From positions 32,001 to 96,000 of the forward strand of contig OZ257142.1 in NCBI GenBank assembly GCA_965279035.1: a stretch of DNA of 64,000 bases. Direction: 5' to 3'. The DNA is from Bacteroidia bacterium. GTDB lineage: Bacteria; Bacteroidota; Bacteroidia; M30B66. Of this stretch, positions 7,283-55,843 are shown piece by piece. The notes under the pieces are model-generated. The model was given only the letters and a program-made list of their open reading frames with translations. It ran no database searches and had not been told where the DNA came from. The translations under genes were made by a program, and so were the position numbers. Each line of letters opens with the position of its first letter. Position 1 is the stretch's first letter.

Positions 7283-7607
7283 GTGTAGTTCGACCTCAGC
7301 CCCGACTTTTTCATTGAGATAGAAGAGATTTGAATTAGTGATATAGCTTAAAAGCACTGCCCTAGCTATTCGCTGGTAGTGTCTAAAAAAAGTGTGTATT
7401 GGATTCTCAACTTTAGAGGAGTAAAAATGGTTAATTTATTAATCCGTCCAATCAAAGTTTTTTATATCAGCATTTAGTTTTGGTATTTTACGATCGAAAG
7501 CTTTTCTTGATAAAGCGCTTGTTCAAAAAGGCTTTCCCAAACCTACACCAAGGCTATGGTATATTTGACAAGCTATATACATAGTTGAATCTTAAGCACT
7601 TTTATAA

Positions 7608-7680
7608 GCCTTCGCGGATGCTTCGGCTTGGGTCACGCTTTCGTGTAGCGGGAGCTATTCTCAATTGCTAGCCCCTTCGG
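7608..7680 (-). repeat. GC-rich structured intergenic repeat (related copies at 29656-29746 and 44336-44403)
   Basis: Minus strand reads GAAGGGG..TTGAGAATAGCTCCCGCTACACGAA..GCCGAA..CGAAGGC, resembling GAAGGGG..TTGAGGCGGATAGCCCGCACGAA..GCCGAA..CGAAGGC at 29656. Confidence 0.45.
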
Positions 7681-7710
7681 AGTTTTGCTGGGCATTCTTA
7701 CAAATGCGAA

Positions 7711-9159
7711 TTATTCCACCTTTACCACTTTCTCCACCACAACCACCTCATCACCCTTTAAAATCCGGCAATAGTAAATCCCCGTTGCAAATCCGCTGAG
7801 AGATAAAGTATGTGTTCCCACTGCAGTAAATTGCTTCTGCTGCACCAAGCGCCCGGTTGCATCCAGAAGTTGAGCAGTGTACGCTGAGCCGGCAGTTTCT
7901 AAATCTATCCGCAGCCAGTCAGTTGCCGGATTGGGGTAAATGGTAACTGCATCGGGAAATGGCGCATCTTCGATTCCGACGCCACAGTTGGCAGGATCAA
8001 GACAGCCATCGGCATCCAATTTTACAACCCACGCGTTTTGTCCTCCACAACAAAAGTCATCATCGGCGGCGCCGCTTATTAACAAACCACCATCCTTGGT
8101 TTCAATAAAGTCGAGGAAGAAATCAGCCCAGTTTCCATGATCATACTCTTTCCTCCAAAGCAGATTGCCTAATGAATCTGATTTCATAATGAAACCAGCA
8201 TTGACGGTTGTATTGTTAATTCCAACTGAAACAATTCCTCCATCGGAAACTCTCCTCCCAATATAATTTGTGCTACTGTTCAACGACGGATAAGTTTTGT
8301 TATATAGAACATTTCCTTCCAAGTTCGTCATCACTACTTTTGGTCCTCCGACTTGATATTTATACCCAGAAAAGAGCAATTTATCGGTTCCAAACTGGCT
8401 CATACCTGCTTCAGTAATTTGAGGTATTTGCCATCCGTCTTGCCTTACCCCATTCTCATCAATACGAACTAGATATTCATGCAGTTCATTGATTGCAAAT
8501 GAACTGCCGGAGGTGCCGGAAATTAAATAATCTCCATTATCATAAACAATATTATTTGGAGAGTCCGCAATATCTTCATCAATCAATGCTTCAGCGAGCA
8601 GTTGTCCTTGACTATTTAGCCTTACGAAATAGCCATTCTGAGCCTCTGAATCAAAATATCCCCTAGAGGCCACTAACGCGATGTCCCCGCTTGGAGATTC
8701 AATTAAATCTTGGGGAGTATCGTAGTAAATAGAATCTCTGTGATAATAAGACCAGATTGTGTCCGCTAAATCAGGGCTTATTTTCAAAACAAAAATCTGA
8801 TTTCCTCCGGTTCCTCCCACTTTGCTTCGAGTATTAAATAACAGCAAATTTCCATCAACACTGCTAATCATTGAGCAAAAACCCGAAAAACGTCTAGACA
8901 AATCGTATTTAAAATTGTTCAACACGATGTTTCCTGAATCATCAAATGAATGCGCCCGCTGGAATCCGCCCTCTTCAACAAACAAACTGTATCCCGAACT
9001 TGCGATATAGTACTTACCGCTGTCAAGCTCAACAGCCCTAGATGCGCTGCCTGCTAAATTTGCCGTGTCGTTGTACGTTCTGGCAAATGTTGCGACCTGG
9101 CCTAAACTTGAAAGGCTAAGTATTAAATGAAAAAAAACAACAGCGAGAAAGTTTCTCAT
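7711..9159 (-). CDS. T9SS type-A secreted beta-propeller-like partner protein, cassette 4
   Basis: Signal peptide, repeated DGG/K(S/L)DxxGxLLW blade-like motifs, and CTD IYPNPA...GIYY...KVVKVE. Confidence 0.8.
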   Translation of the reverse strand: MRNFLAVVFFHLILSLSSLGQVATFARTYNDTANLAGSASRAVELDSGKYYIASSGYSLFVEEGGFQRAHSFDDSGNIVLNNFKYDLSRRFSGFCSMISSVDGNLLLFNTRSKVGGTGGNQIFVLKISPDLADTIWSYYHRDSIYYDTPQDLIESPSGDIALVASRGYFDSEAQNGYFVRLNSQGQLLAEALIDEDIADSPNNIVYDNGDYLISGTSGSSFAINELHEYLVRIDENGVRQDGWQIPQITEAGMSQFGTDKLLFSGYKYQVGGPKVVMTNLEGNVLYNKTYPSLNSSTNYIGRRVSDGGIVSVGINNTTVNAGFIMKSDSLGNLLWRKEYDHGNWADFFLDFIETKDGGLLISGAADDDFCCGGQNAWVVKLDADGCLDPANCGVGIEDAPFPDAVTIYPNPATDWLRIDLETAGSAYTAQLLDATGRLVQQKQFTAVGTHTLSLSGFATGIYYCRILKGDEVVVVEKVVKVE

Positions 9160-9635
9160 TATCTGGAAATGATTAGCCGCTGAACGCCCAACACTTCTTT
9201 ATTTTCAGCGTAAATCCGACAGAAGTAAATGCCTGCTGATAAATGGTCCAAGTGGAGATTCTCCGTGTGCTTGATTTCGCGTTTGACGAAGGATCCGCTA
9301 TGCAACGTGCGCCCGGTAATATCAATTATTTGAAAAGTGAGATTGCCAGCTTCAGCGGTACTAATGTTTAGAGTAAATATCCCTTTGTTGGGGTTGGGAT
9401 AAATGTCTACTTCAGTCTTTGCATCTTGTTTTCGTTGCGGTTTTACTTCTGCTCCTGCAAGCCTTGCCCCAGATGGTTCATCTATATAGGGATACCGATG
9501 GTAAATCGTATCGCCCCGAAGCTGCCGCGCGGCCATTGCGTAACTCTGAATACTGGACGGCACGCGGGATAAAAATTCGAGCTGTTGTTTCTGAACAGAA
9601 TCTATTTGCAGCCAGGTAAGGGAATCTTCTATCAT
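9159..9635 (-). CDS. Orphan C-terminal fragment of the giant T9SS protein (helical segment plus CTD, no signal peptide), cassette 4
   Basis: DSLTWLQID..PSSIQSYAMAARQLRGDT..YP..ARLA..IYPNPN aligns to the giant's DSLTWLTID..PSSVQQYALAVLQLRGDT..YP..ARLA..VYPNPN. TAATG overlap with the next gene. Confidence 0.75.
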   Translation of the reverse strand: MIEDSLTWLQIDSVQKQQLEFLSRVPSSIQSYAMAARQLRGDTIYHRYPYIDEPSGARLAGAEVKPQRKQDAKTEVDIYPNPNKGIFTLNISTAEAGNLTFQIIDITGRTLHSGSFVKREIKHTENLHLDHLSAGIYFCRIYAENKEVLGVQRLIISR

Positions 9636-9817
9636 GTCGAGAGTAAGGTAGATATAATCGGCTAGTTCACCTTTACCACTTTCTCCACCACAACCACCTC
9701 ATCACCGTTTAAAACCCGGCAGTAATAGATACCCGTTGCAAGTCCGCTTAGCGATAAAGTATGCGTTCCCACTACAGTAAACTGCTCCTGCTGCACCAAT
9801 CGCCCTGTTGCATCCAG
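9589..9817. repeat. 229-bp perfect direct repeat, copy 1 (copy 2 at 11540-11768)
   Basis: Base-by-base identity read at offset 1951, spanning the partner CTD end, its stop codon and the cassette start. Confidence 0.9.
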
Positions 9818-11110
9818 AAGTTGAGCCGTATACTCTGTGCCAGCAGTTTCCAAATCTATGCGCAGCCAATCAGTTGCTGGGTTGGGATAAATCGTAACAG
9901 CATCGGGGAATGGTGCATCTTCGATTCCTACGCCACAGTTGGCTGGATCTAGGCAACCATCGGCATCGAGTTTTACTACCCAAGCATTTTGTCCGCCACA
10001 GCAAAAATCATCATCAGCAGCCCCACTGATCAATAAGCCACCATCTTTCGTTTCAATAAAGTCGAGAAAGAAATCAGACAAGTTGCCGTGGTCGTATTCT
10101 TTATGCCAAAGCAGATTTCCTAATGAATCAGATTTCATAATGAAACCAGCATTAATTGTGGTCGTATTAATGCCAACTGAAACAACACCACCATCAGAAA
10201 CTTTTCGACCGATATAACTTTCATTGTTAAACAACGAAGTATAAGTCTTATTAAAAATTATATTTCCATCAAGATCGGTCATTACTAGTTTTGGTCCACC
10301 TGCTTGGTATTTATAACCTGAAAAAAGCAATTTATCTGGTCCAAACTGGCTCATTCCACCTTCTGTAATTTGAGATAATTGCCAGCCTTCTTGTCGAATT
10401 CCATTTTCATCAAGTTTTATTAAATACTCATATCCAACGTCACTTGTAAAAGCAATCCCGGCAACACCAGCTATAAGAAATCCCCCGTCGGATGCACTAA
10501 TTATATTCTTTGGGGAATCAGCTATATTTTCATTAATTAAAGTTTCATTGACAAGTTCTCCCAGAGCATTAAGTTTAATAAAATATCCATCGTGGTCTTC
10601 AGTAGTAGTAAAATAATCTCGTGAAGCTATCAATGCAATTTCACCGCTTGTTGTTTCAATTAAATCTTCTGGAGTATCATAATACAATGAGTCATGATGG
10701 TAATATGACCAAAGTGTATCTGTTAAGTCCGGGCTTAGTTTTAATACGAAGATTTGAGTACCACCTGCATCATTAATCCAACTTCGTGTATTGAACAAAA
10801 GAAGATTACCGTCATTGCTTCTTATCATCGAGCAGAAATCGAAAAAGCGCCTTGATGGAACATAACTGAAATTATCTAAGATAATATCGCCAGAATCATC
10901 AAATGAATGAACTCTCTGAAATCCACCATCTTCTACAACCAAACTAAATCCAGAGCTAGAAATATAATAACTGCCGCTATCGAGTTCAACAGGTCTAGAT
11001 GCATTTCCACCAAAATTTGCCGTGTCATTGTAAGTACGGGCAAAAGTTGGCACCTGTGCAATACTAGATATACTTAATAAAGCAAAAAAGTATGCGACAA
11101 ATTCTTTCAT
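9662..11110 (-). CDS. T9SS type-A secreted beta-propeller-like partner protein, cassette 3
   Basis: Close paralog of 7711-9159 with signal peptide and CTD. Confidence 0.8.
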   Translation of the reverse strand: MKEFVAYFFALLSISSIAQVPTFARTYNDTANFGGNASRPVELDSGSYYISSSGFSLVVEDGGFQRVHSFDDSGDIILDNFSYVPSRRFFDFCSMIRSNDGNLLLFNTRSWINDAGGTQIFVLKLSPDLTDTLWSYYHHDSLYYDTPEDLIETTSGEIALIASRDYFTTTEDHDGYFIKLNALGELVNETLINENIADSPKNIISASDGGFLIAGVAGIAFTSDVGYEYLIKLDENGIRQEGWQLSQITEGGMSQFGPDKLLFSGYKYQAGGPKLVMTDLDGNIIFNKTYTSLFNNESYIGRKVSDGGVVSVGINTTTINAGFIMKSDSLGNLLWHKEYDHGNLSDFFLDFIETKDGGLLISGAADDDFCCGGQNAWVVKLDADGCLDPANCGVGIEDAPFPDAVTIYPNPATDWLRIDLETAGTEYTAQLLDATGRLVQQEQFTVVGTHTLSLSGLATGIYYCRVLNGDEVVVVEKVVKVN

Positions 11111-11586
11111 TACTTGGAAATGATAAATCGTTGAACACCCAGCAACTCTTTATTAGAAGTATAAACCCTACAGAAATAAATACCAACTGATAAGTTATCC
11201 AACTGTATATTTTCAATGTATTTGTTTTCCCGTTTCACGAAGGATTCGATATGCAATGTGCGCCCAGTAATATCAACTATTTCAATTGTATGTCCACCTG
11301 TTGTTATGCTAGTCACATTTAGAGAAAATATGCCTTTATTCGGATTTGGATAAATGCCTATTTCAGACTTTACTTGTTTTTTTTGTTGAGGTTCAACTTG
11401 AGTTCCAGCAAGCCTTGCACCAGATGGTACATCAATGTATGGATACCGGTGGTAAATAGTATCTCCCCGGAGTTGCCTAGCTGCCATTGCGTAACTCTGA
11501 ATACTGGACGGCACCCGCGACAAAAATTCGAGTTGCTGCTTCTGAACAGAATCTATTTGCAGCCAGGTAAGGGAATCTTCTATCAT
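11110..11586 (-). CDS. Orphan C-terminal fragment of the giant T9SS protein, cassette 3
   Basis: First ~52 aa identical to 9159-9635, then a divergent CTD. TAATG overlap with the next gene. Confidence 0.75.
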   Translation of the reverse strand: MIEDSLTWLQIDSVQKQQLEFLSRVPSSIQSYAMAARQLRGDTIYHRYPYIDVPSGARLAGTQVEPQQKKQVKSEIGIYPNPNKGIFSLNVTSITTGGHTIEIVDITGRTLHIESFVKRENKYIENIQLDNLSVGIYFCRVYTSNKELLGVQRFIISK

Positions 11587-11768
11587 GTCGAGAGTAAGGT
11601 AGATATAATCGGCTAGTTCACCTTTACCACTTTCTCCACCACAACCACCTCATCACCGTTTAAAACCCGGCAGTAATAGATACCCGTTGCAAGTCCGCTT
11701 AGCGATAAAGTATGCGTTCCCACTACAGTAAACTGCTCCTGCTGCACCAATCGCCCTGTTGCATCCAG
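11540..11768. repeat. 229-bp perfect direct repeat, copy 2
   Basis: Identical to 9589-9817. Confidence 0.9.
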
Positions 11769-13076
11769 CAGTTGAGCGGTATACGATGAGCCGGCAGTTT
11801 CCAAATCTATTTGCAGCCATTCTGTTGCTGGGTTAGGATATATAGTTAATGCATCAGGGAAAGGAGCATCTTCGATTCCTACACCGCAATTGGCAGGGTC
11901 AAGACATCCGTTGGCATCAAGTTTTAGCAGCCATGAGTTCTGACCTCCATCTGCGTTGCTTTGGCTAGCGGAACCGCTTATCAAAAGTCCACCATCAGAG
12001 GTTTCGATAAAATCGCTGAAGTATTCCACAAAGTCGCCTAAGGTATATTTATAATCTTTCTGCCAGAGCAAAATTCCATCGGCGTCTGTTTTCATTATAT
12101 ACCCATTATTGTTTTCAACAAAATCTAGGTTTGTGGCCAATCCCACAGAGACTATCCCCCCATCAGCAACTTTTCTTCCGATGTAGTTGATAGATGAGGA
12201 TCCAGGATAGATGTATGTTTTATTCTGAACTAAATTTCCAGCCGTATCCAAGAGAAGGATCTTTGCTTCCCCATTTGGGTAGGAGTATCCCGATAAAATA
12301 ATCTTGTTTTCATCATATAAACTCATACCACACTCAGTAATCTGAAAATAGTCTTGGCTCCAAAGAATTTGACCTTGACTGCTTATTTTCATAAGAAAAC
12401 CGTGGAGATTTGTTGAATTAGAAGGTCCGCGGGTGCCTCCAATCAAAACAGAACCATCTGCTAGTTGGGCCAAAGACTCCAGGGCCTGAATTTCACGTTC
12501 ACGAATTATCATTTCGCTTACGAATTGCCCCTGCGAATCTAGCCGTATGATTATACCCAGCATAGAGTCGTTTTCGAGTGGGCGTCTTCTTGCTGTAATA
12601 TACACTTCACCGTTGGTGGATTCAAAAATGTCAGCAGTAGTATTAAACGCACTTGAATCTGAATTAAGATAACTCCACAAAGTATCCGATAAATCCGCAC
12701 TTATTTTCTGAACAAAAATGCGGTTCTCTGTGGTATTCCCCAATTTGCTCCTCGTACTTGCCAAAAAAAGATTCTCATTATTACTTTTTATGAGTTTACT
12801 GAAACCCGAATAAGTTCTGTTTAAATCATACTCCATCCTATTTTGAATCAACTCACCTTGTTGATCCACTTGGTAGATTCGCTGGTAACTACCTTGAGAA
12901 AGACTTAATCCTCCACCTGAGGATGCAATAGAATAAACACCATCCGGATACTCAACAGGTCTTGAACTAATGTTAGAAAGATTTAATGTGTCGCGGTAGG
13001 TTTTGTTAAATGTATTTACCTGCGCTAAAAGCGACTGAAAGGAAAAAAGTAAAGCGAGGGCGAACAGTTTTTTCAT
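11613..13076 (-). CDS. T9SS type-A secreted beta-propeller-like partner protein, cassette 2
   Basis: Close paralog of 13576-15036 with signal peptide and CTD. Confidence 0.8.
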   Translation of the reverse strand: MKKLFALALLFSFQSLLAQVNTFNKTYRDTLNLSNISSRPVEYPDGVYSIASSGGGLSLSQGSYQRIYQVDQQGELIQNRMEYDLNRTYSGFSKLIKSNNENLFLASTRSKLGNTTENRIFVQKISADLSDTLWSYLNSDSSAFNTTADIFESTNGEVYITARRRPLENDSMLGIIIRLDSQGQFVSEMIIREREIQALESLAQLADGSVLIGGTRGPSNSTNLHGFLMKISSQGQILWSQDYFQITECGMSLYDENKIILSGYSYPNGEAKILLLDTAGNLVQNKTYIYPGSSSINYIGRKVADGGIVSVGLATNLDFVENNNGYIMKTDADGILLWQKDYKYTLGDFVEYFSDFIETSDGGLLISGSASQSNADGGQNSWLLKLDANGCLDPANCGVGIEDAPFPDALTIYPNPATEWLQIDLETAGSSYTAQLLDATGRLVQQEQFTVVGTHTLSLSGLATGIYYCRVLNGDEVVVVEKVVKVN

Positions 13077-13549
13077 CGCGCCAATGTAATACGTTGCAAA
13101 GCAATTACCCCTTTGTCCTCTCCACGCAATTCAACTAAATACAGCCCATCAACAAGATCTGTGATTTCTATAGATGACCGAATCTGTTTGGCACCACCTG
13201 GGAGCTTTCCAGATTTTAACTGGCGGCCTGTGAGATCAAATATTTTCCATTCAATCTGTTCTTCTTTTTCGAGCGTGAGTTCCAAGGTGAACGTGCCGGA
13301 GTTAGGGTTGGGATAAATCCGCACGACGTTTTTCTGCCCGGTTTTCTTCGGTGTGGGTTTTATCTGTGACGCAAGGCGGGGAGATGTTGTTGATTCAAGG
13401 TCCGGATATCGGTGGTAAATCGTATCACCGCGCAATGAGCGTGCTGCAAGCGCATAACTCTGAATAATTGATTGCTCGCGCGAAAGATTTTCCAGGCGTA
13501 TTACCTGTACAGAGTCCAACTGCATCCAGGAGAGGGTATCTTCTTGCAT
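13073..13549 (-). CDS. Orphan C-terminal fragment of the giant T9SS protein, cassette 2
   Basis: Near-identical, gapless copy (offset 1960) of 15033-15509. ATGA overlap with its partner. Confidence 0.75.
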   Translation of the reverse strand: MQEDTLSWMQLDSVQVIRLENLSREQSIIQSYALAARSLRGDTIYHRYPDLESTTSPRLASQIKPTPKKTGQKNVVRIYPNPNSGTFTLELTLEKEEQIEWKIFDLTGRQLKSGKLPGGAKQIRSSIEITDLVDGLYLVELRGEDKGVIALQRITLAR

Positions 13550-13575
13550 ATCCAGGTAAAGGTCGGTATAATCGG

Positions 13576-15036
13576 CTAGTTCACCTTCACCACTTTCTCC
13601 ACCACAACCACCTCGTCACCCTTTAAAACACGGCAATAGTAAATCCCCGTTGCTAGTCCGCTTAGCGACAAGGTATGCGTTCCCACAACAGTAAACTGTT
13701 CCTGCTGCACCAAACGACCCGTTGCATCCAGCAGTTGACCGGTATACGCTGAGCCGGCTGTTTCCAAATCTATACGTAGCCAGTCGGTTGCCGGGTTCGG
13801 ATAAATAGTAACTGCATCAGGAAACGGCGCATCTTCGATTCCTACTCCGCAATTAGAAGGGTCAAGACAGCCATCGGCATCAAGTTTTAGCAGCCAGGAG
13901 TTCTGACCACCATCTGCGTTGCTTTGGCTAGCGGAACCACTTATCAAAAGGCCACCATCTGAAGTTTCGATGAAATCCGTTAAGTATTCCACAAAGTCGC
14001 CTGAAGTATATTTGTAATTTTTCTGCCAGAGCAAATTTCCATTTGGGTCGGTTTTCATAATATACCCATTATTATTATCAACGAAATCCAGGTTTGTGGC
14101 CAATCCGACCGAAACAATTCCGCCATCAGCAACTTTTCTTCCGATATAATTAATGGCAGAAAATCCCGGATAGACATAGGTTTTATTTTGAACTAAATTT
14201 CCAGAGGTATCTAAAAGAAGCATTTTGACGGTGCCGCTTGTGGTATTGTATCCTGATAAGATAACCTTGCCATCATCATATAAACTCATTCGTCCTTCTG
14301 TGATTTGTGGATAATTAAAATCCCATATAACTTCACCAAAGGAATTCACCTTCATCAGGAACCCTTGAATGTTGCCAGCATCGATTCTACGAGCTCCGCC
14401 GATTAATAGATTGCCATCCGACAATTGAACCAAACTATACGGAGATTGCTTTTTGTATTGCCTAAATACTGCTTGAGTTAAGAATTGACCCTGTGCCGTT
14501 AAATGAATAAAAACAGCAAGCATGGAATCGGAGTCAAAAAATGCTCTGTTTGCTGTGAGATAAACGCTGCCATCCGCAGCCTCTAGTAGATCTTCCGTTG
14601 TATCAAAAAAGGTCGAATCAGAATGAAAATAACTCCACAATGTATCTGATAAGTCGGCACTTATTTTCTGCACAAAAATTCTATTCCCGCCTGTGCTTCC
14701 CGCCAAACTCCTCGTGCTGGCCAAAAAGAGATCATTGCTGTTCGAGTGAATCAGTTGGCTTGCTCCCTGATATCTTCTGGAAATATCATATTCCATTCGA
14801 TTCTGGATCAACTCACCCTGATCATTGACTTGGTAGATGCGTTGGTAACCACCTTCAGCAAGACTCAATCCTCCGCCTGCCGTTGCAATACTGTAAATAC
14901 CTGGAGGGTCCTCTACTGGCCTTGAACTGATGTTGGAAAGGACAAGGGTATCCCTAAACGTTTTGTTGAACGTGTTCACCTGCGCTATTAACGAATGAAA
15001 GGAGACAAGTAAGGCGAAGGAGAAAAGGTTTTTCAT
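13576..15036 (-). CDS. T9SS type-A secreted beta-propeller-like partner protein, cassette 1
   Basis: Signal peptide, blade-like repeats, GCLDPSNC linker and CTD. Confidence 0.8.
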   Translation of the reverse strand: MKNLFSFALLVSFHSLIAQVNTFNKTFRDTLVLSNISSRPVEDPPGIYSIATAGGGLSLAEGGYQRIYQVNDQGELIQNRMEYDISRRYQGASQLIHSNSNDLFLASTRSLAGSTGGNRIFVQKISADLSDTLWSYFHSDSTFFDTTEDLLEAADGSVYLTANRAFFDSDSMLAVFIHLTAQGQFLTQAVFRQYKKQSPYSLVQLSDGNLLIGGARRIDAGNIQGFLMKVNSFGEVIWDFNYPQITEGRMSLYDDGKVILSGYNTTSGTVKMLLLDTSGNLVQNKTYVYPGFSAINYIGRKVADGGIVSVGLATNLDFVDNNNGYIMKTDPNGNLLWQKNYKYTSGDFVEYLTDFIETSDGGLLISGSASQSNADGGQNSWLLKLDADGCLDPSNCGVGIEDAPFPDAVTIYPNPATDWLRIDLETAGSAYTGQLLDATGRLVQQEQFTVVGTHTLSLSGLATGIYYCRVLKGDEVVVVEKVVKVN

Positions 15037-15656
15037 CGCGCCAGTGTAATGCGTTGCACGTCAATTACCCCTTTGTCTTCGCCACGCAATTCAACTAAAT
15101 ACAGCCCATCAACAAGATCTGTGATTTCGATTGCTGAGCGAATCTGTTTTGAGCCACCTGAAAGCGCACCTGATTTTAACTGGCGGCCTGTGAGATCAAA
15201 TATTTTCCATTCAATCTGTTCTTCTTTTTCGAGCGTGAGTTCCAAGGTGAATGAGCCGGAGTTAGGGTTGGGATAAATCCGCACGACGTTTTTCTGCCCG
15301 GTTTTTTTCGGGGTGGGTTTTATCTGTGACGCAAGGCGGGGAGATGTTGTTGATTCAAGGTCCGGATACCGGTGGTAAATCGTATCACCGCGCAATGAGC
15401 GCGCTGCAAGCGCATAACTCTGAATGATCGACTCCTCTTGCGATAATTGCTCCAGTCGTAGCACCTGCAGGGAGTCGAGTTGCATCCAGGAGAGGGTATC
15501 TTCTTGCATATCCAGGTAAAGATCGGTATAATCGGCAAACAGGCTGTCATTGCGTGTGCTGAGCGTCAATGAATCTAACCAGCGTCGGGCATCTGCCAGG
15601 CTATTTGTATTGGTTAATTTAAAGCCCGGCATCTCATCACCGATAAGCATGCTCAC
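15033..15656 (-). CDS. Orphan C-terminal fragment of the giant T9SS protein, cassette 1 (longer, 207 aa)
   Basis: LDSLTLSTRNDSLFADY aligns with the giant's LDSITLSTLDDSLFVDY. No signal peptide; overlaps both neighbours by 4 nt. Confidence 0.75.
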   Translation of the reverse strand: MSMLIGDEMPGFKLTNTNSLADARRWLDSLTLSTRNDSLFADYTDLYLDMQEDTLSWMQLDSLQVLRLEQLSQEESIIQSYALAARSLRGDTIYHRYPDLESTTSPRLASQIKPTPKKTGQKNVVRIYPNPNSGSFTLELTLEKEEQIEWKIFDLTGRQLKSGALSGGSKQIRSAIEITDLVDGLYLVELRGEDKGVIDVQRITLAR

Positions 15657-17119
15657 CGTGCAATAACAACCCTTTCCGTCACACTTTTCCCATCCTTCAA
15701 CGTAAACTTCGCCAGATACAAACCCACCGGCAAATGGCTCACCTGAATTGCTTCCAAGGGAGCAGTTAGTTTTGTGTTCATCACCCGCTGACCTGCAATA
15801 GAAAATAATTCCAGGGCCACCGCTTGCGTTGTGTTTTGCAATTTAAAGCTTAGCCAATCATTGGCAGGGTTGGGGAAAATGGAAACACCAAGTTTATTAG
15901 CTTCCACACTTTCCAAACCAACCCAGCAGTCGGGTTCCAGGCATCCCATTGAATCCAGTTTGACTATCCATAGGTTCTGACCACCAGCTCCTGGGTCAGT
16001 GGCTGAACCATCAATTAAAAGACCTCCATCAGAAGTTTCAAGCACATCAGTGAAAAAGTCTGTATTGGAATTGTAATTATATCTTCGAAACCATTGAAGA
16101 TCTCCAGAATGGTCCGCAAGAGAAATGAAACCGGCGTTATCTGCATCAATCAACCCAATCGAGATGATTTTACCATTGGAATTTCGCCTTGAGTAATATT
16201 GATCTATTCCATCAGCTTCAAAATCGTTTAGTTTATCCCATAATACAATCCCGCTTGTATCGACTTTAATTGTGCGTGTAAAGTGATTTGACAAATTCGA
16301 TGGAGTGCCAGATAGTAAATATTCTCCATTAGAGTATGGTGAAACCCGCAAATTATAATGATTAGGATATTCATTATGATCAATGAGATTTCCTAAAAGA
16401 TTTAATTTATATACTACTCCATCGTATTGGTTGCCATCGGAATATCCGCTACCACCAATATAAATATTGTTGTTGATAAGAGTTGCACTTAGAAAATATA
16501 AGTTAGCACCATTTTCATAGATTTTGAAATCAAGTGAATCACCTTCATTATTTAGTTTTAAAAAGAATCCATCAAATTCATTTGCCTCCAAGCTATCTGG
16601 ATAAACTCTTGAACCAATAATAATTATAGATTGATCAGATTCGGAAATAAGTATATCAGCAATCGCATCAACATAACTATTTTGTGGAAACGTATATTTC
16701 CATATGGTATCCAACTCAGGTGTGAGTTTTGCGATTTCTAAGTTTGCATATGTAACGGAACTAACCAAATTCACATTAACTTTAGAATAGGCTGAAAACA
16801 AATTTATTCCATCCGTTGCAAGTGCACCTGACGGAATATAACGGCCCATTGTATCGTAATTCATTTTACGAAAAACGATTTCTCCATCTTCTGTAATTCT
16901 TGTAACCATATTATACCCTTTTAGACCATCCATACCAAACCCAGAAGATTGTATGAAATAATCTTCGTCTAATAATACTGCTCTTGATGATAACGAGGCA
17001 TAATTTAGAGTATCATTTAATGTAAAACTAAATGTGGTTATTCCTTGAGCAGAACTTTTTAAAAATCCTACATAAATAAAAATGAGAAGAAGAATTAACC
17101 GTAACGTCATTACTTTCAA
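15653..17119 (-). CDS. T9SS type-A secreted beta-propeller-like partner protein adjacent to the giant gene (start TTG 17119 or ATG 17110)
   Basis: Signal peptide; ETSDGGLLIDGSA..GGQNLWIVKLDSMGCLEPDC shared with the cassette partners; CTD IFPNPA. Confidence 0.8.
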   Translation of the reverse strand: MKVMTLRLILLLIFIYVGFLKSSAQGITTFSFTLNDTLNYASLSSRAVLLDEDYFIQSSGFGMDGLKGYNMVTRITEDGEIVFRKMNYDTMGRYIPSGALATDGINLFSAYSKVNVNLVSSVTYANLEIAKLTPELDTIWKYTFPQNSYVDAIADILISESDQSIIIIGSRVYPDSLEANEFDGFFLKLNNEGDSLDFKIYENGANLYFLSATLINNNIYIGGSGYSDGNQYDGVVYKLNLLGNLIDHNEYPNHYNLRVSPYSNGEYLLSGTPSNLSNHFTRTIKVDTSGIVLWDKLNDFEADGIDQYYSRRNSNGKIISIGLIDADNAGFISLADHSGDLQWFRRYNYNSNTDFFTDVLETSDGGLLIDGSATDPGAGGQNLWIVKLDSMGCLEPDCWVGLESVEANKLGVSIFPNPANDWLSFKLQNTTQAVALELFSIAGQRVMNTKLTAPLEAIQVSHLPVGLYLAKFTLKDGKSVTERVVIAR

Positions 17120-20100
17120 TGAATTAATGAAATTTTATGGTGTCCTAAAACTCTTCCATCTTTATCAAGTATGTTAAGTAAGTAAATACCATTGGATAGA
17201 TCATTACACGTTAACTCGATTAATTGATTACGCTCTGTTAGTTGATTTATCTGTCGAATCAAACGACCGGAAAGGTCTACAAGACTTATTATAAGATTTC
17301 CTTCATAGTCATTAACTTGTAGAGTAAATTTACCATCATTGGGATTAGGATAAACACGTGTTAAGATATTTTTACTCTTTCGATTGTATTTTGCTTCATT
17401 AGCCAACCTAGCTGAAGGTGGAAAAGCATTTTCCGGATAATGCTCAATGGTCGTATCACCGCGTAGTTGCAGAACAGCTAATGCATACTGTTGTACAGAC
17501 GAAGGAATAGAGGCCATGTTTCGAATGTCTTCTAATATTGTAGTATCTATGGTAAGCCAAGTAAGGCTATCGCGTAATAAGTTCAGATACATTTTATGGT
17601 AATCAACAAACAAGCTATCATCTAGAGTTGATAAAGTTATGGAATCGAGAACAGCTTCAGCTTGATCCAAGCTGTCGCTACCCAGATAAGTACTGAAAAG
17701 GCTTCTTTCAAAACCGGTACCAAGGCTATCTTTGTATAAGGCAGCCAGCTCATACCATTCATCTCGTTCTAACAAACTTGATTCAATTTTACTAATAGTA
17801 GTTAGCCATTCACCTCGAAAATGATGAGCTGCCCTTTTATAGGTTTCATGTGTTTGAACATAGGCGTTTTCTTTTTGCAATCCAAGCAAGCTGTCACGAG
17901 TAGCTTGATAGTAATTAGTATCTGCTAAGAGAACTCTCAATTCATTCAGTACTTTTTGTGTAGCAGGAAGGTTTAGCAGCATAAAATTGATTAACTCATT
18001 ATTACTAAATAAGTTTTCCAGACGTAAAGCAGTTACAAGCACACTATCGCTTAAAGGTGAATATAATGTTAATACAATTGATAAATCAGCTGAAGATTGA
18101 GTTGTGTCAGAAAGTATACCCAATAGGCTATCGGTTTGCATTCCATCTAAGTTTTCAAGTATTGTTTGCTTTTGTAATTCCATACTATCTGACATGAACT
18201 TAAATTGTCTGCGTTCAGCATTTAGACTGATAATATTAAGAGCTCCAGTTCCAGATGGGCAAGGATTTGACAATCCAGATCCGCAAATAGTTGTTGAGCC
18301 TGACTCAGAAATGGAACTGAATACAGGAGTTTCGACATTAATTGGTCTTGCATAATAATACCAATCTGGTGTTTGATTATTGGGGGCCCATATATGTTTA
18401 ACACCAACACCTTGATCATTAAAAATGTTTCCGGGACGGTATTGTGCAGGACCACAACCAATGCCTTGGTTATTAAATACACCCGACATACTTAACGGAT
18501 TGATATGCCAGTCATAATTATTATTGGTAAAGTCGTTACATTTTAAAAATAAATATGGGTTATTATATTCTGATTGAAAACCACGCTGTAGGTTAGTAAA
18601 ATCGTTACGTTGTATAAGCATATTTATGCCAGAACTTTGAGGCTGAAGACCTCTAGTAATTAGTCCCCAATTATATGGTTCGGCTGAACCAGATCCAATG
18701 AAATTATTTAATTGAACCTTGTTAGCAGTGCGGTAATCATAAAAATAGATACCATATGGATCAGGAATAACAGATGTATTGCCATCGGAATCTGGTATGT
18801 TAAAATCGTTATTGATATAATTATCACCACGAGCATTCTCAGAATATATTCCCATTCGACAATTGTCAAACAAAGACCCTGAACTATAAACATTATACCC
18901 GATTGATGTATTTGTAACTCGGGTAATAATTCCACGGGTTAATCCAATAAATCGGTTCCGAAGCGCATTATCGGCATTCAGATCAGATTGGTCGTCATTA
19001 TTTGGATTAGTTGAAAGAACTCTGACTTGTGCATCATACAAGGCAATTCCTTGAGTTCTGTCGTGAGACAGAAATGGGTATTCAGTGGTGGTACAACTTT
19101 CTTTTATTGAAAAGTCTCCATCATTTAGAAAAATATTATCTCTAAATATAACACCTTTTATTTCCCATGCAGATACAAACATTTGTGAGGCCAACCAGTA
19201 ATTTGTTTGACTATCGAAATAATCAGGATTTTTCAAATGATCATCGCAAATGAATAAACAGTTGGTGAATTTACTTATACTTGGAAAAGTATAAGGATGA
19301 AAAGATACTGACCGCCAGTTGTTCCTGAAAGTACTATTGGATGCTACTACAATTCCTCCTGTTACCCCCCCATACATATTGTCACCTGCATCACTCATAA
19401 AAATACCTTCTTCAGCATTTTCTATTACTGCATGATTTTTCATTTCAACTACACCTTGAACAGTATTTGCTAATGTTCCTTGTGGCTGCGAAGCAATACC
19501 CATTAATCTAATTCCTCTCCACATAGTACAGGAACTAGTTAGAGTTCCGCCATCTAAAATCAGTTTACCCCCAGGCTGAATAAGTATCATAGCATCATCA
19601 GGAAATTCTACTTTACAAGTTATAGTTAACGTGCGTCCTGGATAGACAATTATATCATTGTAAACTCTAATATCAAGTTCCCAAGTTTCGTTCATATTTA
19701 TACCAATAGGAGTACTAGAATAAGGACAATCGTCTATAAAGCGTTTCAAATTAGTAATAGATGCTGCTTTATGAATTTTTCCAACTTGATTAGGTGAATA
19801 ATATAAGTAACTCTGATAATTACCGCCCATCACATTATTAGTTGTCCTTGTATAACATGGGTCATTAGGATCATTTATATAAGGATCAACAACTAATGCA
19901 CCAGGTGGACATCCTGAAGGATGAACTATTTGTCCATGAGGGCAATTCAGATCATTTCCATCAATTACTCCAAATAAATCTAGTAACCCATCAAAATCAG
20001 AATCTTGATCTTCGATAGTACAATAAATTCCATTTTGATATAAATGTACTAAGTCTAACATGTGAGCAATTTCATGTGCAACATGTCTAGTGAAAGCCCA

Positions 20101-23100
20101 TACAAAACCTTCAAGTCCATTTAATTGATATGATTCAAAAGCTTTTCTAGAAAATGCATACATTGGATCATTTTGATTGCAAGATGGAGGTGTGGCATTA
20201 CCATATGCACCGCCAACATTATTAACTAAAAAGTAATTAAAGTCATCTTCTATTTCGCATCCAAACTCAGCAATAGCTTGTTGGTAGAGATTTAAACGAA
20301 GATTAGAACTTGAGTAATCAGCATTAAATTGTGTATTTGTTACAGGCATAAATAGAATTCGTTCAATATAAAAATCAATTCGTGCTGAATTCAATTCATT
20401 AATTGGAAGTATAATTGGATCTGACGGATTTCCATTTCCAGTAAAAAGCGATTTTATTGACCATGCTTGATTTGTTTCAAAAACTTGTCGAATTGCATTA
20501 ATATGGCTAGGAATATCCTCAAAATTCCCAGGTAAATTCGGAGCGGAATTTTGCACAACTATAACATTAATTCCAATTCTTTTGATAGGAATAAATGTAC
20601 TTGAATTGTCACTAGGCTGATAGAATTTAAATTTGTAATAACGTTCGCTGTTTTCTGGAAATACATATGAGGGATCATTAATATATTGAGAACAACCTCC
20701 ACATGCTAAACGGTCGGTTGCCATATAGTTACAAACAACGGTGTTGCTCTCTGTAGATTGAGTTGGAAGTGAAATTTTTGACTCACAACCTGTATTTTCA
20801 GTTATGACAGCATTAATTGTATCTCCTAAAACAGCATTATTTAATATTAAAATACTGTCTTTCCCAACATAAAGTAATTGATTGTTTAGACTAAATTGAT
20901 ATGATTTCTGATTAGGTGAGAATCTTACTACTTGAGCTTTTTGCAAAAATGTATCAACTCCGGTTACATAAGAAGGAGTAAGAAAACACTTACCAACCAA
21001 ATTTAATATAGTAGGAAAAGAATTAATGCTTGTTACCGCTTGAACATTTCCAATTGTGCTATTTCCTGAATAGGTGCCATTGCCTTTATCTTTCCATTGG
21101 CTGCCATCCCAGATGGTAATTTTCGCATCAACAGGGTTAGAACTATAGCACGGATTATTACTCCAACCCAATTTGGCATTTGTTGTTCCTGTTCCTGCTG
21201 TGCGGTCTAATTTCCAATAACCACAACGATTTACAAAACCTAATGTGGAATCTTTGCTCGATCTTGAATAGTTGCTGTTTGGGTCTGTTCCAAAATATGA
21301 AGCTTTAAACGTTGTGTTGCTTGAAACTGAATCGATACTTATTGGTGCATACTGCCCTCCACCACCAGTCGGAAATGTAAATTCGGTGATTCCCATTTTG
21401 CTGATTGCTCCTTCTACATAGGAAGAATCACTGCCTTGTGATGCGATGGCAAAATATTCGAGAAACAGCGAATTGGTATCACTTATTTGTACAATGCCTT
21501 TGCTTAGATTGAGCGCACTTAGAATATGAAGAGGGACATCGATGATAAGCTGCCCATTGGGCTTTTCAACGTTTAATGTTGCCATTGAAAAATCATTAAA
21601 GGTGCCCGTAGATTCAATGTGTTGGTCATCCTCTCCAACAAATCGCATAGCACTCCCTTGATTTAAATCGGGAGATGTGCTGCCTCTGAATTCAAGGTTT
21701 TTGTAAATATCAGAACTACCATCACTTGCTGTCATCACTTTTCCATCACCTGTACATTCGATAATTAAATCATCCCAAAATTGATTGTTAGAAGCATCAT
21801 AATTTAAAAGGAAATACCCATCCGAACTGGTTTTAAAATGAGCCTTTCCATAAAACACCATGCTTCCACCACCTTGATCATAGCCACTTCCGGTTTTGTG
21901 TAATAGGGTATTTCCGTGATAAAAACCTCCATTGGTTACGATGGATGGAAGTTCCACGTTAAGTGGTCCTTGAATTTGACATTGACTCAATACAAGGCGC
22001 GAATTATCCGTTCCTGTAAAAGTTATGCTATCTGTATTGGTTGATCGAAAACCCAATAGATCCAATTCGGAATTTGCAAATGATGTAGTATAAATAGTTC
22101 CGCTACTGCCTTGTTTTATCATACCCAATACAACCAAACCACCCGTACAATTTAAATTAATATTTCCTTGAACGATATTGGTATCGGTTGAATATTCCCC
22201 TAATGCTATACGTCCAGCAGATGAGCTAATTTTTAAATCACCACCAATTGATAAAAATCCATTGCTTGCAATATCGATGGAGCCCTCATCAGTATTAATC
22301 AAGCTGAGATCGGAACGAAATGAGCAAGAATCGTCTAATGCAGTTAAAAAGGAACCAGTGCCAGAATTGGTTAACGAAAACGGAGCGTTGGTTATAATTG
22401 GTCCGAAACGAGGCTGATTTGATTCCGGTCCTATTTTAACAAAACTGGTTGAATCATTGAATGTTGAATTGCCTATGTAAATGGATTGAGCTGAGCAATT
22501 TACTTTAGAGTTAAATATACTACCTTGATCAATATAGAGGGAATTACCTTTTTGATTATCATCCATTTGGATAGATAAGGAATCATCTAGCGTAACTCCA
22601 CGAAACCTTAATTCACCAACAAACCAACCAGTCTCAGAAAGACTTATTGGGGCTCCAGAATGAAAATGAGCATTTCGTGTAAACTCAAGTGCATTTGCTC
22701 CATTGTTCCCAATGAGAACTGGAGCATAAAAATCGACCGATGCCGAATCAGCGCCATCGCAGAAATAGATGGACGAATTTGACTTCATATCGATTCGGCA
22801 AAATCCATTGATCTGTGTGTTAACAGAGTTATGAGCAAAGTGAAAAACTCCAGGATTTAAATATACACCATCATAAGAAATTATTTGTAAACTATCTTGA
22901 AAGGTATCGGGTGCATCATAACCAAAATACAAATCGGCAGCACCTTCATTTGAAATCTTCAATGATTTTTCAAACGTGTTTCCACCGCAATAACTTGGAG
23001 AACTGCTACTAACGGCAATTGAGCTTGCTTTTTTAAAAACACAATTTGAAATAGTAGAAGTCCCAATTAATGCTAAAATAGTGACATCCAATTGTGAATT

Positions 23101-23448
23101 CGTTAATTGAATAGATTGATAAGTTAATGGTCCAGTTATTTGAAGATCTCCATGTTTAATGCTTGCTTCATTCATGGCAAACCGGCCATTGATTGTCAAA
23201 AGATATCCTCCTAAATCGAGTTCAGCACCACTCGTTAGTATTATTGTATAACAATAGGTATTTCCGGATAATACTGGTTTATTGCTAGAGGAATGAATAT
23301 AAATTGTATCTGCCCAACTGGGTGATGAAGGGCTCCAATTAGCAGCAGTACTCCAATTTGTGCTAACAGTACCTGTCCACGTTCTTGACGACGCAAAAGC
23401 ACATTGGTTCAAAATTAAAATGAATAGCAGGAGAAGGAAATTTTTCAT
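17116..23448 (-). CDS. Giant T9SS-secreted multidomain protein: beta-helix-like N-terminus, metzincin (M43/pappalysin-like) domain, right-handed beta-helix, helical segment, CTD
   Basis: Signal peptide from ATG 23448 (MKNFLLLLFILILNQCAFA), HEIAHMLDLVH at 20044-20076, Met-turn-like NNVMGG, and VYPNPN...GIYLL CTD. Confidence 0.75.
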   Translation of the reverse strand: MKNFLLLLFILILNQCAFASSRTWTGTVSTNWSTAANWSPSSPSWADTIYIHSSSNKPVLSGNTYCYTIILTSGAELDLGGYLLTINGRFAMNEASIKHGDLQITGPLTYQSIQLTNSQLDVTILALIGTSTISNCVFKKASSIAVSSSSPSYCGGNTFEKSLKISNEGAADLYFGYDAPDTFQDSLQIISYDGVYLNPGVFHFAHNSVNTQINGFCRIDMKSNSSIYFCDGADSASVDFYAPVLIGNNGANALEFTRNAHFHSGAPISLSETGWFVGELRFRGVTLDDSLSIQMDDNQKGNSLYIDQGSIFNSKVNCSAQSIYIGNSTFNDSTSFVKIGPESNQPRFGPIITNAPFSLTNSGTGSFLTALDDSCSFRSDLSLINTDEGSIDIASNGFLSIGGDLKISSSAGRIALGEYSTDTNIVQGNINLNCTGGLVVLGMIKQGSSGTIYTTSFANSELDLLGFRSTNTDSITFTGTDNSRLVLSQCQIQGPLNVELPSIVTNGGFYHGNTLLHKTGSGYDQGGGSMVFYGKAHFKTSSDGYFLLNYDASNNQFWDDLIIECTGDGKVMTASDGSSDIYKNLEFRGSTSPDLNQGSAMRFVGEDDQHIESTGTFNDFSMATLNVEKPNGQLIIDVPLHILSALNLSKGIVQISDTNSLFLEYFAIASQGSDSSYVEGAISKMGITEFTFPTGGGGQYAPISIDSVSSNTTFKASYFGTDPNSNYSRSSKDSTLGFVNRCGYWKLDRTAGTGTTNAKLGWSNNPCYSSNPVDAKITIWDGSQWKDKGNGTYSGNSTIGNVQAVTSINSFPTILNLVGKCFLTPSYVTGVDTFLQKAQVVRFSPNQKSYQFSLNNQLLYVGKDSILILNNAVLGDTINAVITENTGCESKISLPTQSTESNTVVCNYMATDRLACGGCSQYINDPSYVFPENSERYYKFKFYQPSDNSSTFIPIKRIGINVIVVQNSAPNLPGNFEDIPSHINAIRQVFETNQAWSIKSLFTGNGNPSDPIILPINELNSARIDFYIERILFMPVTNTQFNADYSSSNLRLNLYQQAIAEFGCEIEDDFNYFLVNNVGGAYGNATPPSCNQNDPMYAFSRKAFESYQLNGLEGFVWAFTRHVAHEIAHMLDLVHLYQNGIYCTIEDQDSDFDGLLDLFGVIDGNDLNCPHGQIVHPSGCPPGALVVDPYINDPNDPCYTRTTNNVMGGNYQSYLYYSPNQVGKIHKAASITNLKRFIDDCPYSSTPIGINMNETWELDIRVYNDIIVYPGRTLTITCKVEFPDDAMILIQPGGKLILDGGTLTSSCTMWRGIRLMGIASQPQGTLANTVQGVVEMKNHAVIENAEEGIFMSDAGDNMYGGVTGGIVVASNSTFRNNWRSVSFHPYTFPSISKFTNCLFICDDHLKNPDYFDSQTNYWLASQMFVSAWEIKGVIFRDNIFLNDGDFSIKESCTTTEYPFLSHDRTQGIALYDAQVRVLSTNPNNDDQSDLNADNALRNRFIGLTRGIITRVTNTSIGYNVYSSGSLFDNCRMGIYSENARGDNYINNDFNIPDSDGNTSVIPDPYGIYFYDYRTANKVQLNNFIGSGSAEPYNWGLITRGLQPQSSGINMLIQRNDFTNLQRGFQSEYNNPYLFLKCNDFTNNNYDWHINPLSMSGVFNNQGIGCGPAQYRPGNIFNDQGVGVKHIWAPNNQTPDWYYYARPINVETPVFSSISESGSTTICGSGLSNPCPSGTGALNIISLNAERRQFKFMSDSMELQKQTILENLDGMQTDSLLGILSDTTQSSADLSIVLTLYSPLSDSVLVTALRLENLFSNNELINFMLLNLPATQKVLNELRVLLADTNYYQATRDSLLGLQKENAYVQTHETYKRAAHHFRGEWLTTISKIESSLLERDEWYELAALYKDSLGTGFERSLFSTYLGSDSLDQAEAVLDSITLSTLDDSLFVDYHKMYLNLLRDSLTWLTIDTTILEDIRNMASIPSSVQQYALAVLQLRGDTTIEHYPENAFPPSARLANEAKYNRKSKNILTRVYPNPNDGKFTLQVNDYEGNLIISLVDLSGRLIRQINQLTERNQLIELTCNDLSNGIYLLNILDKDGRVLGHHKISLIH

Positions 23449-23483
23449 GGGATAATTTTTTTGAAATAATGGATATGGAATTT

Positions 23484-53629: not shown

Positions 53630-53703
53630 ATATATCGTTAAAATTTTTAAATCTCCAACGTGAGTTTATTAAAATACATCCTCACTAAGTGAATCAGATT
53701 GAA

Positions 53704-54549: not shown

Positions 54550-54579
54550 TATGAAGCATTTTGACAAAACTAAAGAATT

Positions 54580-55755: not shown

Positions 55756-55843
55756 TATGGGAGGATTTTTTTGCCTTATGCGAATTGGAAATAGAAGTTC
55801 AAACATGTCCAAAAAGATTTCAGATAATCGGTAATTTGCGAGC

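Follow-up and report, generated by a model that had tools for sequence, protein, structure and literature searches.

At the locus, a tightly packed row of genes on the minus strand consists of a 146-aa ORF, a giant gene, its partner P0, and four cassettes that each combine an orphan tail ORF (CT) with a P gene. It lies within the window, i.e. the whole 64-kb stretch of DNA analyzed here from a 4.2-Mb genome. The 146-aa ORF (23484-23924) is located 5′ of the giant and overlaps its start by 4 nt; it has no Pfam or NCBIfam family match and is kept in the related loci L002 and L006. The giant, or main gene (17116-23487), encodes a 2123-aa T9SS cargo protein whose last ~165 aa consist of a helical pre-CTD region, which contains an LRGDT motif, and behind it a type A sorting domain. 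The main gene is paired with the propeller gene P0 (15653-17119; 488 aa), whose start overlaps the giant stop by 4 nt. Each CT is a copy of the final 158-207 aa of the giant, and each P is a beta-propeller of ~485 aa (482-488 aa). The first cassette contains CT1 (15033-15656; 207 aa, type A), with a GTG start overlapping the P0 stop, and P1 (13576-15036; 486 aa, type A); the second contains CT2 (13073-13549; 158 aa, type A) and P2 (11613-13076; 487 aa), which has a type A body and shares its final 155 nt with P3. They are followed by CT3 (11110-11586; 158 aa) and P3 (9662-11110; 482 aa), both of type B, and by CT4 (9159-9635; 158 aa, type B) and the terminal copy P4 (7711-9159; 482 aa). Predicted promoters and terminators between positions 7000 and 25000 are as frequent as in shuffled sequences (59 versus 55.8, and 11 versus 12.6, respectively).

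A T9SS sorting domain is common to the giant, P0 and all CT and P proteins. The C-terminal domain Por_Secre_tail was detected by Pfam in 7 of 9 proteins and by NCBIfam (TIGR04183) in 7 of 8, namely in the giant, P0, CT1, P1, CT2, P3 and CT4. Judged by eye, hydrophobic N-terminal leaders are present on the giant and on P0-P4, but not on CT1-CT4. In the CT tails, Por_Secre_tail/TIGR04183 is the sole domain detected by Pfam and NCBIfam, without any toxin domain, and about 77 aa precede it. Purifying selection acts on the orphan CT ORFs (dN/dS ~0.15) and also on the P genes. The structural model of P3 consists of a beta-propeller and an Ig-like CTD; a fold search with this model returned generic beta-propellers only (CylK, rhamnose-glucuronate lyase, sialidases, lectins and BamB, with PorZ at rank 21), so that no function for P3 follows from it. 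The complex prediction for P3 (residues 20-482) and CT3 reached a score of 0.01 against a mark of 0.32, a value that counts neither for nor against binding.

The three internal junctions of the array, J1 to J3 after P1 to P3, are identical (3/3). According to the initial annotation, the G of the terminal TAG at 13576, 11613 and 9662 is at the same time the first base of the alanine codon of an ADY motif, and this could be confirmed: the 15-mer AACTAGCCGATTATA occurs on the minus strand at 13567-13581 (J1, AACTAG followed by CCGATTATA), 11604-11618 and 9653-9667 with 0 mismatches each, and the window holds no extra copy even if up to 2 mismatches are allowed. Its chance expectation is 0.15, and three copies were reached in 0 of 100 shuffles. 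The CT side of the junction has an internal counterpart in CT1, where GCCGATTATA is read from 15536 (15527-15536) with TTT before it; the nine codons in front of the Met of CT2-CT4 spell ADYTDLYLD or ADYIYLTLD. Both outer boundaries differ from the internal ones: P0 meets CT1 (J0) 40 codons 5′ of the ADY alanine, and P4 ends with GTGGAATAA, running into unique flank.

The two divergent cassette types recognized earlier correspond to cassettes 1 and 2 (type A) and cassettes 3 and 4 (type B). All five units (the main one and four cassettes, 1951-1963 nt each) align along their whole length, with an overall DNA identity of 0.75-0.78 for units of the same type and 0.56-0.57 for A against B. Within-type dS is 0.31-0.80, with CT3 and CT4, both of type B, at 0.80; between A and B, pS is 0.71-0.75, at or near saturation. 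Over most of the length of P, pS is 0.6-0.9 even within a type, i.e. synonymous sites are saturated, and it drops to 0.34-0.6 in the last ~90 codons. For the pair P2/P3 it is 0.00 over the final ~50 codons versus 0.5-1.0 elsewhere. J2 and J3 are embedded in a perfectly identical tract of 229 nt (155 nt from P, then the G, then 73 nt from CT), whose copies are found at 11540-11768 (G at 11613) and 9589-9817 (G at 9662); its flanks show 29 mismatches in the adjoining 145 nt upstream and 43 in the adjoining 227 nt downstream. Exact matches of 26-156 nt among P1-P4 represent a substrate for recombination; between the giant tail and CT1-4, the longest exact match is 9-13 nt. Past the stop, types A and B agree without a mismatch for exactly 10 nt (GCCGATTATA), and identity then falls to ~67% (33 mismatches in 100 nt).

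A repeated junction could also be produced by an assembly in which repeats were mis-joined. The 3′ ends of the P genes do repeat, with up to 156 identical nt, and short-read contigs break there. Yet the cassettes differ by 22-44% overall, with intact ORFs in each, and their unique parts are covered without differences in four runs from two samples of one study; in each of the four runs, a 1580-nt contig bridges J1. As the assembly may have been built from these runs, they are not independent evidence. The same architecture, however, recurs in other assemblies, and we consider an artefact scarcely credible.

For the shared breakpoint, the initial annotation had left the choice between a specific recombination site and one ancestral junction reused in the array; our results favor the latter and speak against the former. 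As a site-specific system comparable to an integron or shufflon, the array would require that the 15-mer, or the boundary between P stop and ADY, is recognized by a recombinase encoded elsewhere. The identity of the 15-mer at three boundaries, one of them between two divergent cassette types, is what such a site would look like, and the search for the enzyme was confined to the 64-kb window. There, in agreement with the annotation, no recombinase, integrase or transposase family was matched by any of the 35 ORFs ≥150 aa that lie outside the array, nor by the 8 array proteins. The boundary itself lacks an inverted repeat or structure: in the region 7400-17800 the single inverted repeat is inside P0 and none is at any junction, while the predicted folding of 81 nt around each junction is not beyond that of shuffles (z = 0.04, 0.42 and 0.42). 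Moreover, all cassettes are paralogs of one unit instead of unrelated cargo, and the first boundary of the same array (P0/CT1) is 40 codons away.

Related loci in other Bacteroidota bear directly on this question. The test named in the initial annotation was the position of the ADY breakpoint in independent arrays, and these positions are scattered across ~75 codons on the CT side, so that the site-specific reading fails. Relative to the ADY alanine, the breakpoints are at codon -40 for J0, about -26 to -34 for L046/L047, 0 for J1-3 of the window, about +12 for L048, about +15 to +17 for L003/L004, and about +32 for L005. At least six breakpoint classes are thus resolvable in the window and eight loci (including L003/L004, L005, L046/L047 and L048). 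L002 is ambiguous; 128 nt separate its P-remnant stop from recognizable CT, and the alignment scores are close to those of shuffles (z = 0.80 for the window, 0.57 for L045). With other boundaries used by independent arrays, we regard a dedicated recombination site as highly improbable. Within an array, on the other hand, the junction is repeated: junctions a and b of L048 are identical (2/2), as are the joins of L003 and L004 (2/2). Together with the end-to-end homology of the cassettes and the 229-nt tract at J2/J3, this argues for one ancestral junction that was reused.

Our preferred reading, to which we assign a probability of roughly 85%, is that the three identical junctions go back to a single ancestral illegitimate join, which unequal crossing-over multiplied and gene conversion kept uniform; the cassettes would share their junction nucleotide as descendants of one duplication boundary that homologous recombination copied. 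In this scenario, the stop codon of some P gene would have been joined illegitimately to the ADY alanine, ~165 codons before the end of the giant frame, an event that created the repeat unit of CT plus P. Unequal homologous crossing-over between units would then have multiplied it, so that every internal boundary inherits the same join. Later, the copies may have diverged to types A and B, with the central part of P diverging further, while repeated gene conversion, for which the conserved 3′ end of P (coding for the T9SS sorting domain) served as anchor, presumably kept the junction region alike; its latest event would have included J2 and J3. A dedicated site or recombinase would be unnecessary. 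We infer this order of events, and RecA-type recombination as the agent. Conversion is demonstrated for J2/J3 only. As synonymous sites between A and B are saturated, the nine untranslated nt behind the stop should have drifted unless they were converted or constrained, an observation that counts against this account.

The P side of the joins deserves separate mention. In five of the seven junction classes the P-side breakpoint is the stop codon, and in three of those five the following start overlaps it. Random illegitimate joins do not predict such a preference, which likewise is a point against the account given above. Breakpoints at or just past the stop probably reflect selection for co-transcription and translational coupling.

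What remains to be weighed is homology-facilitated import. According to this model, a foreign type B main tail with its P replaced the interior of a type A cassette that already carried the junction, by crossovers in the conserved P 3′ end and in the 10-nt identity GCCGATTATA at the orphan start; the junction would still derive from one event, but the B cassettes would not have diverged in place. The abrupt end of A/B identity 10 nt past the stop is compatible with it, given that a sharp edge at the orphan start also fits the import of a type B block via a microhomology crossover. Furthermore, type B is known elsewhere as the tail of a main gene: CT3 and the main-gene tail of L043 share 79.6% protein identity and 78-80% DNA identity, compared with 77.2% between CT3 and its neighbor CT4. 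The history of the array hence includes exchange beyond duplication in place. L043 is also a mosaic of both B cassettes, its CT being nearer to cassette 3 and its P start nearer to cassette 4, which implies that blocks were exchanged. On the other hand, the crossover would have to hit the first 10 nt of the orphan and nowhere else in CT, L043 has GCAAATTAT instead of GCCGATTAT at the place of the crossover, and both B cassettes (CT dS of 0.80) carry the junction, so that an extra duplication is needed anyway. We therefore judge import to be unlikely as the origin of the B cassettes, and retain the single illegitimate join with subsequent crossing-over and conversion.

Across genomes, tail types switch between the main gene and orphan positions; on a tree built with a quick method, the main/orphan label requires 10 changes. 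The L003 orphan, for instance, is 79% identical to the main tail of L006, and the main tail of the window is 53% identical to the 154-aa ORF P0017. The pre-CTD family is small, as a search of 1.84 billion representative proteins gave only 49 matches with E ≤ 1e-3; at E ≤ 1e-10, 16 of 23 library matches of the pre-CTD profile are short ORFs, with matches starting at varied profile positions. A word-index search with CT4 found CT4 and CT3 only (2 of 26 candidates), and a search for longer proteins carrying CT3 spanned lengths of 278-2000 aa only. A second giant is encoded in the same genome (P0054) and was considered as a carrier of the type B tail, but it ends in a different kind of tail.

Ordinary tandem gene arrays evolve by unequal crossing-over and gene conversion, i.e. 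by concerted evolution. The present array resembles them in its identical internal junctions, differing first and last boundaries, mosaic identity, and a recent identical tract over two boundaries; it differs in that the start of the unit lies within a reading frame, and the gene fragment so formed is kept as an ORF under purifying selection. Integrons, which require an integrase and attC hairpins and carry unrelated cargo, likewise line up cassettes head to tail with a recurring boundary, but neither integrase, hairpins nor unrelated cargo were seen in the 64-kb window. In silent-cassette conversion (pilE/pilS, vlsE), the variable part of an expressed gene likewise recurs as partial copies behind that gene; here, the partial copies have their own starts and complete partner genes, and no usable identity to the expressed gene. 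Another array of T9SS cargo genes in Bacteroidota is that of the KLIKK proteases of Tannerella forsythia (Ksiazek et al. 2015, PMC4404884; PMC9890683), where, as far as these accounts extend, each gene has a nearly identical C-terminal sorting domain and a small neighboring ORF. In those descriptions, the paired ORFs (potempins) are located upstream and encode lipoprotein inhibitors, and fragments of a giant gene do not figure.

The closest likeness may be to the orphan modules cdiA-CT/cdiI and rhs-CT/rhsI, which lie 3′ of CDI and Rhs toxin genes, in the form outlined by Poole et al. 2011 (PMC3150448) and Koskiniemi et al. 2014 (PMC3967940). In both cases, to the extent covered by these sources, one or more 3′ fragments, every one with its own partner gene, lie behind the gene for a very large secreted protein and the partner of that gene; the fragments retain some conserved sequence 5′ of the variable part, and a module that is orphan in one genome forms the main-gene tail in another. 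The differences are considerable. Secretion here is by T9SS as opposed to T5SS or T6SS, and the partner is a secreted beta-propeller of ~485 aa as opposed to the small cytoplasmic immunity protein portrayed there. The variable C-terminus leaves no room for a toxin, consisting of ~77 helical aa and the sorting domain. T9SS normally removes the sorting domain. The orphans of this locus possess start codons, frequently in overlap with the stop of the gene before them; Rhs/CDI orphans, by contrast, are described as usually devoid of initiation signals (PMC3967940, PMC3150448). Main and orphan sequences share at most 13 nt of identity here, too little for switching by homologous recombination; the figure reported for Salmonella is 522 bp at 95% (PMC3967940).

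The repeated junction itself is ordinary: any tandem array shows such junctions, and new recombination machinery is unneeded. More interesting is the array, in which C-terminal fragments of a giant, each with a propeller gene, are retained as intact, selected ORFs. So far, the dynamics of orphan modules are known from toxin systems (PMC3150448, PMC3967940), and our literature searches yielded no counterpart for T9SS cargo. By analogy, we tentatively raise the possibility that the locus corresponds to the CDI/Rhs orphan arrays, but with T9SS secretion and no toxin: the giant, as a surface or secreted protein, would have an exchangeable module of a tail and its cognate propeller, with intact spares kept downstream as translated, selected genes that might change places between orphan and main positions over evolutionary time through homologous recombination. 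If so, the system would allow a cell-surface complex to vary, for instance to counter phages, predators or antibodies, and the small CT proteins, which contain a sorting domain and, judged by eye, no signal peptide, would have a function of their own. Should the modules be functional spares, the principle of orphan cassettes would extend beyond toxins, and it would raise the question of which role a sorting-domain protein without a signal peptide may play.

The array consists of 11 minus-strand ORFs arranged head to tail: a 146-aa ORF (23924-23484), the giant of 2123 aa (23487-17116), its beta-propeller partner P0 (17119-15653), and four cassettes, each composed of an orphan copy (CT) of the giant's C-terminal tail and a further partner gene (P), i.e. 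CT1 (15656-15033) and P1 (15036-13576), CT2 (13549-13073) and P2 (13076-11613), CT3 (11586-11110) and P3 (11110-9662), and CT4 (9635-9159) and P4 (9159-7711). Stops and starts of neighbouring ORFs overlap by 1-4 nt, except for a gap of 26 nt at the boundaries behind P1, P2 and P3 (J1-J3). The giant, P0, CT1, P1, CT2, P3 and CT4 match the T9SS type A sorting domain (Pfam PF18962 in seven of nine proteins scanned; TIGR04183 in seven of eight); P2, CT3 and P4 are close paralogues of the proteins scanned. CT1-CT4 correspond to the giant's final 165-207 residues and share with them a pre-CTD region that bears an invariant LRGDT motif and, behind it, the sorting domain. The model of P3 (pLDDT 81.2, pTM 0.75) predicts an all-beta propeller and then a beta-sandwich, and its PDB matches are generic propellers. 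For the giant, the sorting domain is the sole Pfam or NCBIfam family matched; an HExxH-like motif (HEIAH) was spotted by eye in its middle part. The array is surrounded by chromosomal housekeeping genes, including ATP synthase, leucyl-tRNA synthetase and fumarase. The synthetase ORF (47220-50636, 1138 aa) carries the endonuclease-like DUF559 at residues 333-434, between synthetase parts, and in the region 50639-55938 a serpin gene (54580-55938) adjoins two more genes for proteins with a T9SS sorting domain, at 53704-54567 and at 50639-53629; the second of these also carries DUF7619.

On the minus strand, P1, P2 and P3 all end in ...AAGGTGAACTAG|CCGATTATA..., P4 terminates in ...AAGGTGGAATAA followed by unique sequence, and TTTGCCGATTATACC lies inside CT1, at 15536. 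The string AACTAGCCGATTATA occurs three times without mismatch on the minus strand of the 64-kb window (9653-9667, 11604-11618 and 13567-13581), and no further match appears there when up to two mismatches are allowed; shuffled sequences contain 0.15 matches on average, and none of 100 shuffles attains three. The initial annotation was accurate as to coordinates, the exact threefold match, the P4 end and the internal CT1 copy. It proposed either a specific recombination site or one ancestral junction reused for every later insertion, and stated that the window encodes no recombinase. The latter statement holds among the 35 window ORFs of at least 150 aa, none of which matches a recombinase, integrase or transposase family. 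The DNA folding energies of 81 nt around each junction are not better than those of shuffles (z 0.04, 0.42, 0.42), and the sole inverted repeat in 7400-17800 (at least 12 nt, within 200 nt) is inside P0, with none at the junctions.

When the array is cut at the junction, units of 1951-1963 nt result, which align end to end with each other and with the equivalent main unit (giant tail plus P0). Overall identity is 0.78 between units 1 and 2 (type A), 0.75 between units 3 and 4 (type B), 0.56-0.57 between the types, and 0.42-0.44 between any unit and the main unit. It reaches its minimum in mid-P (0.37-0.65) and its maximum over the final ~300 nt of that gene (units 1-4: 0.75-1.00). Saturation of synonymous differences extends across most of P even within one type (pS 0.6-0.9); over the last ~90 codons pS falls to 0.34-0.6 with pN of just 0.01-0.08, and between P2 and P3 pS is 0.00 over the last ~50 codons. 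The most divergent part is formed by the central propeller blades (codons ~161-240, e.g. 14556-14317 in P1), with a pN of 0.23-0.37 for pairs of one type and 0.46-0.56 across types, versus 0.01-0.08 in the sorting domain; across genomes, too, the P sorting domain is far more conserved than the P body. By ungapped extension outward from the junction G, J2 and J3 lie within a perfectly identical tract of 229 nt, made up of the G itself, 155 nt on the P side and 73 nt on the CT side. Past its edges, the adjoining 145 nt upstream contain 29 mismatches and the adjoining 227 nt downstream 43. J1 and J2 differ at 16 of 150 nt upstream; downstream, the first mismatch is at +10, and 33 occur in 100 nt. 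Judged from these comparisons, the cassettes are old paralogues and their junction region is young. Exact matches among P1-P4 extend over 26-156 nt, which is enough for homologous recombination; the longest between the giant's tail and the orphans is at most 13 nt.

In four sequencing runs (X1-X4), contigs that are 90-97% like P3 plus CT3 cover window positions 9801-11580, pass into dissimilar sequence at both ends, and have a depth about equal to that of the window's own contigs; the summed depth over this span is ~1.5-2 times that of neighbouring spans. The 30 nt of a variant contig beyond 11580 are absent from the window. The unlike ends and the raised depth therefore indicate a further type B-like CT-P copy in the sample.

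The P alignment, searched against one genome per species, yielded 42 loci, and a 69-column pre-CTD alignment, searched against metagenomes, added another 6. According to tblastn and stop-to-stop translations, several Bacteroidota assemblies share the architecture: giant tail - P - CT - P in locus L005, P - P - CT - P in L003, P - P remnant - CT - unrelated propeller in L004 of the same MAG, P end - CT - P - CT in L048, P end - spacer - CT - P in L046/L047, and giant ... P remnant - CT - P in L002. Only giant - P is found within the stretches examined of L006, L007 and L043. In L045 (5983-7970), a CT - P pair stands by itself, preceded by ~400 nt of non-coding DNA; neither a giant nor a P occurs within 6 kb upstream, and the CT and the L002 orphan are 80% identical. 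The junction recurs within an array: the P-stop/CT boundary is identical at both joins of L048, and one boundary is common to L003 and L004. On the CT side, the breakpoint varies from array to array. Counted from the alanine of the Ala-Asp-Tyr (ADY) at J1-J3, which is position 0, it lies at -40 codons at the P0/CT1 boundary (J0), at about -26 to -34 in L046/L047, about +12 in L048, about +15 to +17 in L003/L004, and about +32 in L005; in L002, the 128-nt stretch past the stop aligns no better than shuffles. Among 1.84 billion representatives, 49 proteins matched a pre-CTD HMM at E<=1e-3; 23 of them did so at E<=1e-10, and 16 of these 23 are shorter than 260 aa. Their matches start at profile positions 1 to 21, those of three weaker short proteins (P0025, P0026, P0030) at 26-38, and the N-termini of 20 retrieved sequences are correspondingly varied. 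Such scatter across independent arrays is what the initial annotation had said would refute a site-specific event, and site-specific recombination is not supported as the origin of the junction.

Support falls instead on the second proposal, in view of the whole-length paralogy, the 229-nt identical tract and the repetition of the junction within other arrays: very probably (about 85%), one ancestral junction was propagated and homogenised by homologous recombination. A single illegitimate join between sequences sharing no more than 1 nt would have fused a P stop to the ADY alanine; unequal crossing-over between units would then have spread it, and gene conversion anchored in the conserved 3' end of P would have kept the copies alike. 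The last codons of P read GTG GAA TAA in P4, GTG GAG TAG in L046/L047 and GTG AAC TAG at the junctions. Two last-codon substitutions suffice, and no filler DNA has to be invoked. What the single join does not itself explain is the sharp end of identity between types A and B 10 nt past the stop, nor does it alone account for the clustering of P-side breakpoints at the stop across independent arrays. These comprise start/stop overlaps (J0, L003/L004, L005) and direct joins (J1-J3, L048), and L046/L047 retain ~25 nt of native-looking flank after the P stop. We infer that a downstream copy would be expressed only if the duplication ends before the operon's terminator and leaves a coupled start. 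As posed, the junction is that of an ordinary tandem array.

With some exceptions, the orphan tails show no decay. CT1 and CT2 differ with dS 0.31 and dN/dS 0.14, and CT3 and CT4, which preserve the sorting-domain motifs, with dS 0.80 and dN/dS 0.16. All four have a start codon and an intact frame, as do the orphans of L003, L004 and L005. The exceptions are the second L048 orphan, split across two frames near a contig end, the L002 orphan, which has no recognisable N-part, and the variant copy in the runs, which lacks one base at 11377. By eye, no signal peptide was seen in the CT ORFs; it is therefore difficult to picture them as T9SS cargo. The L004 orphan (11656-12096) shares its N-part and junction with the L003 orphan, and its sorting domain resembles that of the unrelated propeller just downstream (12084-13505), which suggests exchange between sorting-domain coding ends. 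In P0019 (85 aa), the CT N-part with the LRGDT region is joined straight to P-type last residues (...KIVKVN), and the protein looks as though a deletion had removed what lay between CT and the P end.

Across genomes, main and orphan positions evidently interchange. CT3 has more in common with the L043 main-gene tail (79.6% identity) than with CT4 (77.2%), and the giants of L043 and the window are 45% identical overall; L043 is nearer to cassette 3 in CT and to cassette 4 where P begins. The L006 main tail and the L003 orphan are 79% identical, the nearest relative of CT1 and CT2 is a partial giant (P0004, 54%), and that of the window's own main tail is a 154-aa ORF (P0017, 53%). A maximum-likelihood tree was built by a quick method from 35 tails, of which 34 bore a label (23 orphan, 11 main; library proteins by length alone, long being assumed main and short orphan). 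On it, the label needs 10 changes, against a mean of 9.4 for shuffled labels, and at least 7 are forced by branches with SH-aLRT of at least 95. Since main gene and orphans share no usable identity in the window's genome, switching is not poised there. A second giant paralogue (P0054, 2162 aa) lies outside the window on the same 4.2-Mb contig; its 78% identity covers 37% of the query, in the N-terminal part, whereas its middle differs and its tail has no LRGDT region.

The interchange follows the pattern described for Rhs, in which orphan sequences of one serotype sit in the main gene of another (Koskiniemi et al., PMC3967940). The locus works like CDI/Rhs orphan arrays (PMC3150448, PMC3967940) but fails their defining features: it has neither toxin domain nor small immunity gene, its orphans have their own start codons, and its secretion route is T9SS. 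Nor is the array integron-like. The KLIKK proteases form a T9SS gene array with shared, nearly identical sorting domains (PMC4404884), and allelic exchange in T9SS surface proteins is known in P. gingivalis (PMC5266723). Full-text searches of the openly accessible literature found no description of orphan tail cassettes behind T9SS cargo. The junction itself is ordinary; the locus around it is of moderate interest, as a new form of the orphan-module theme.
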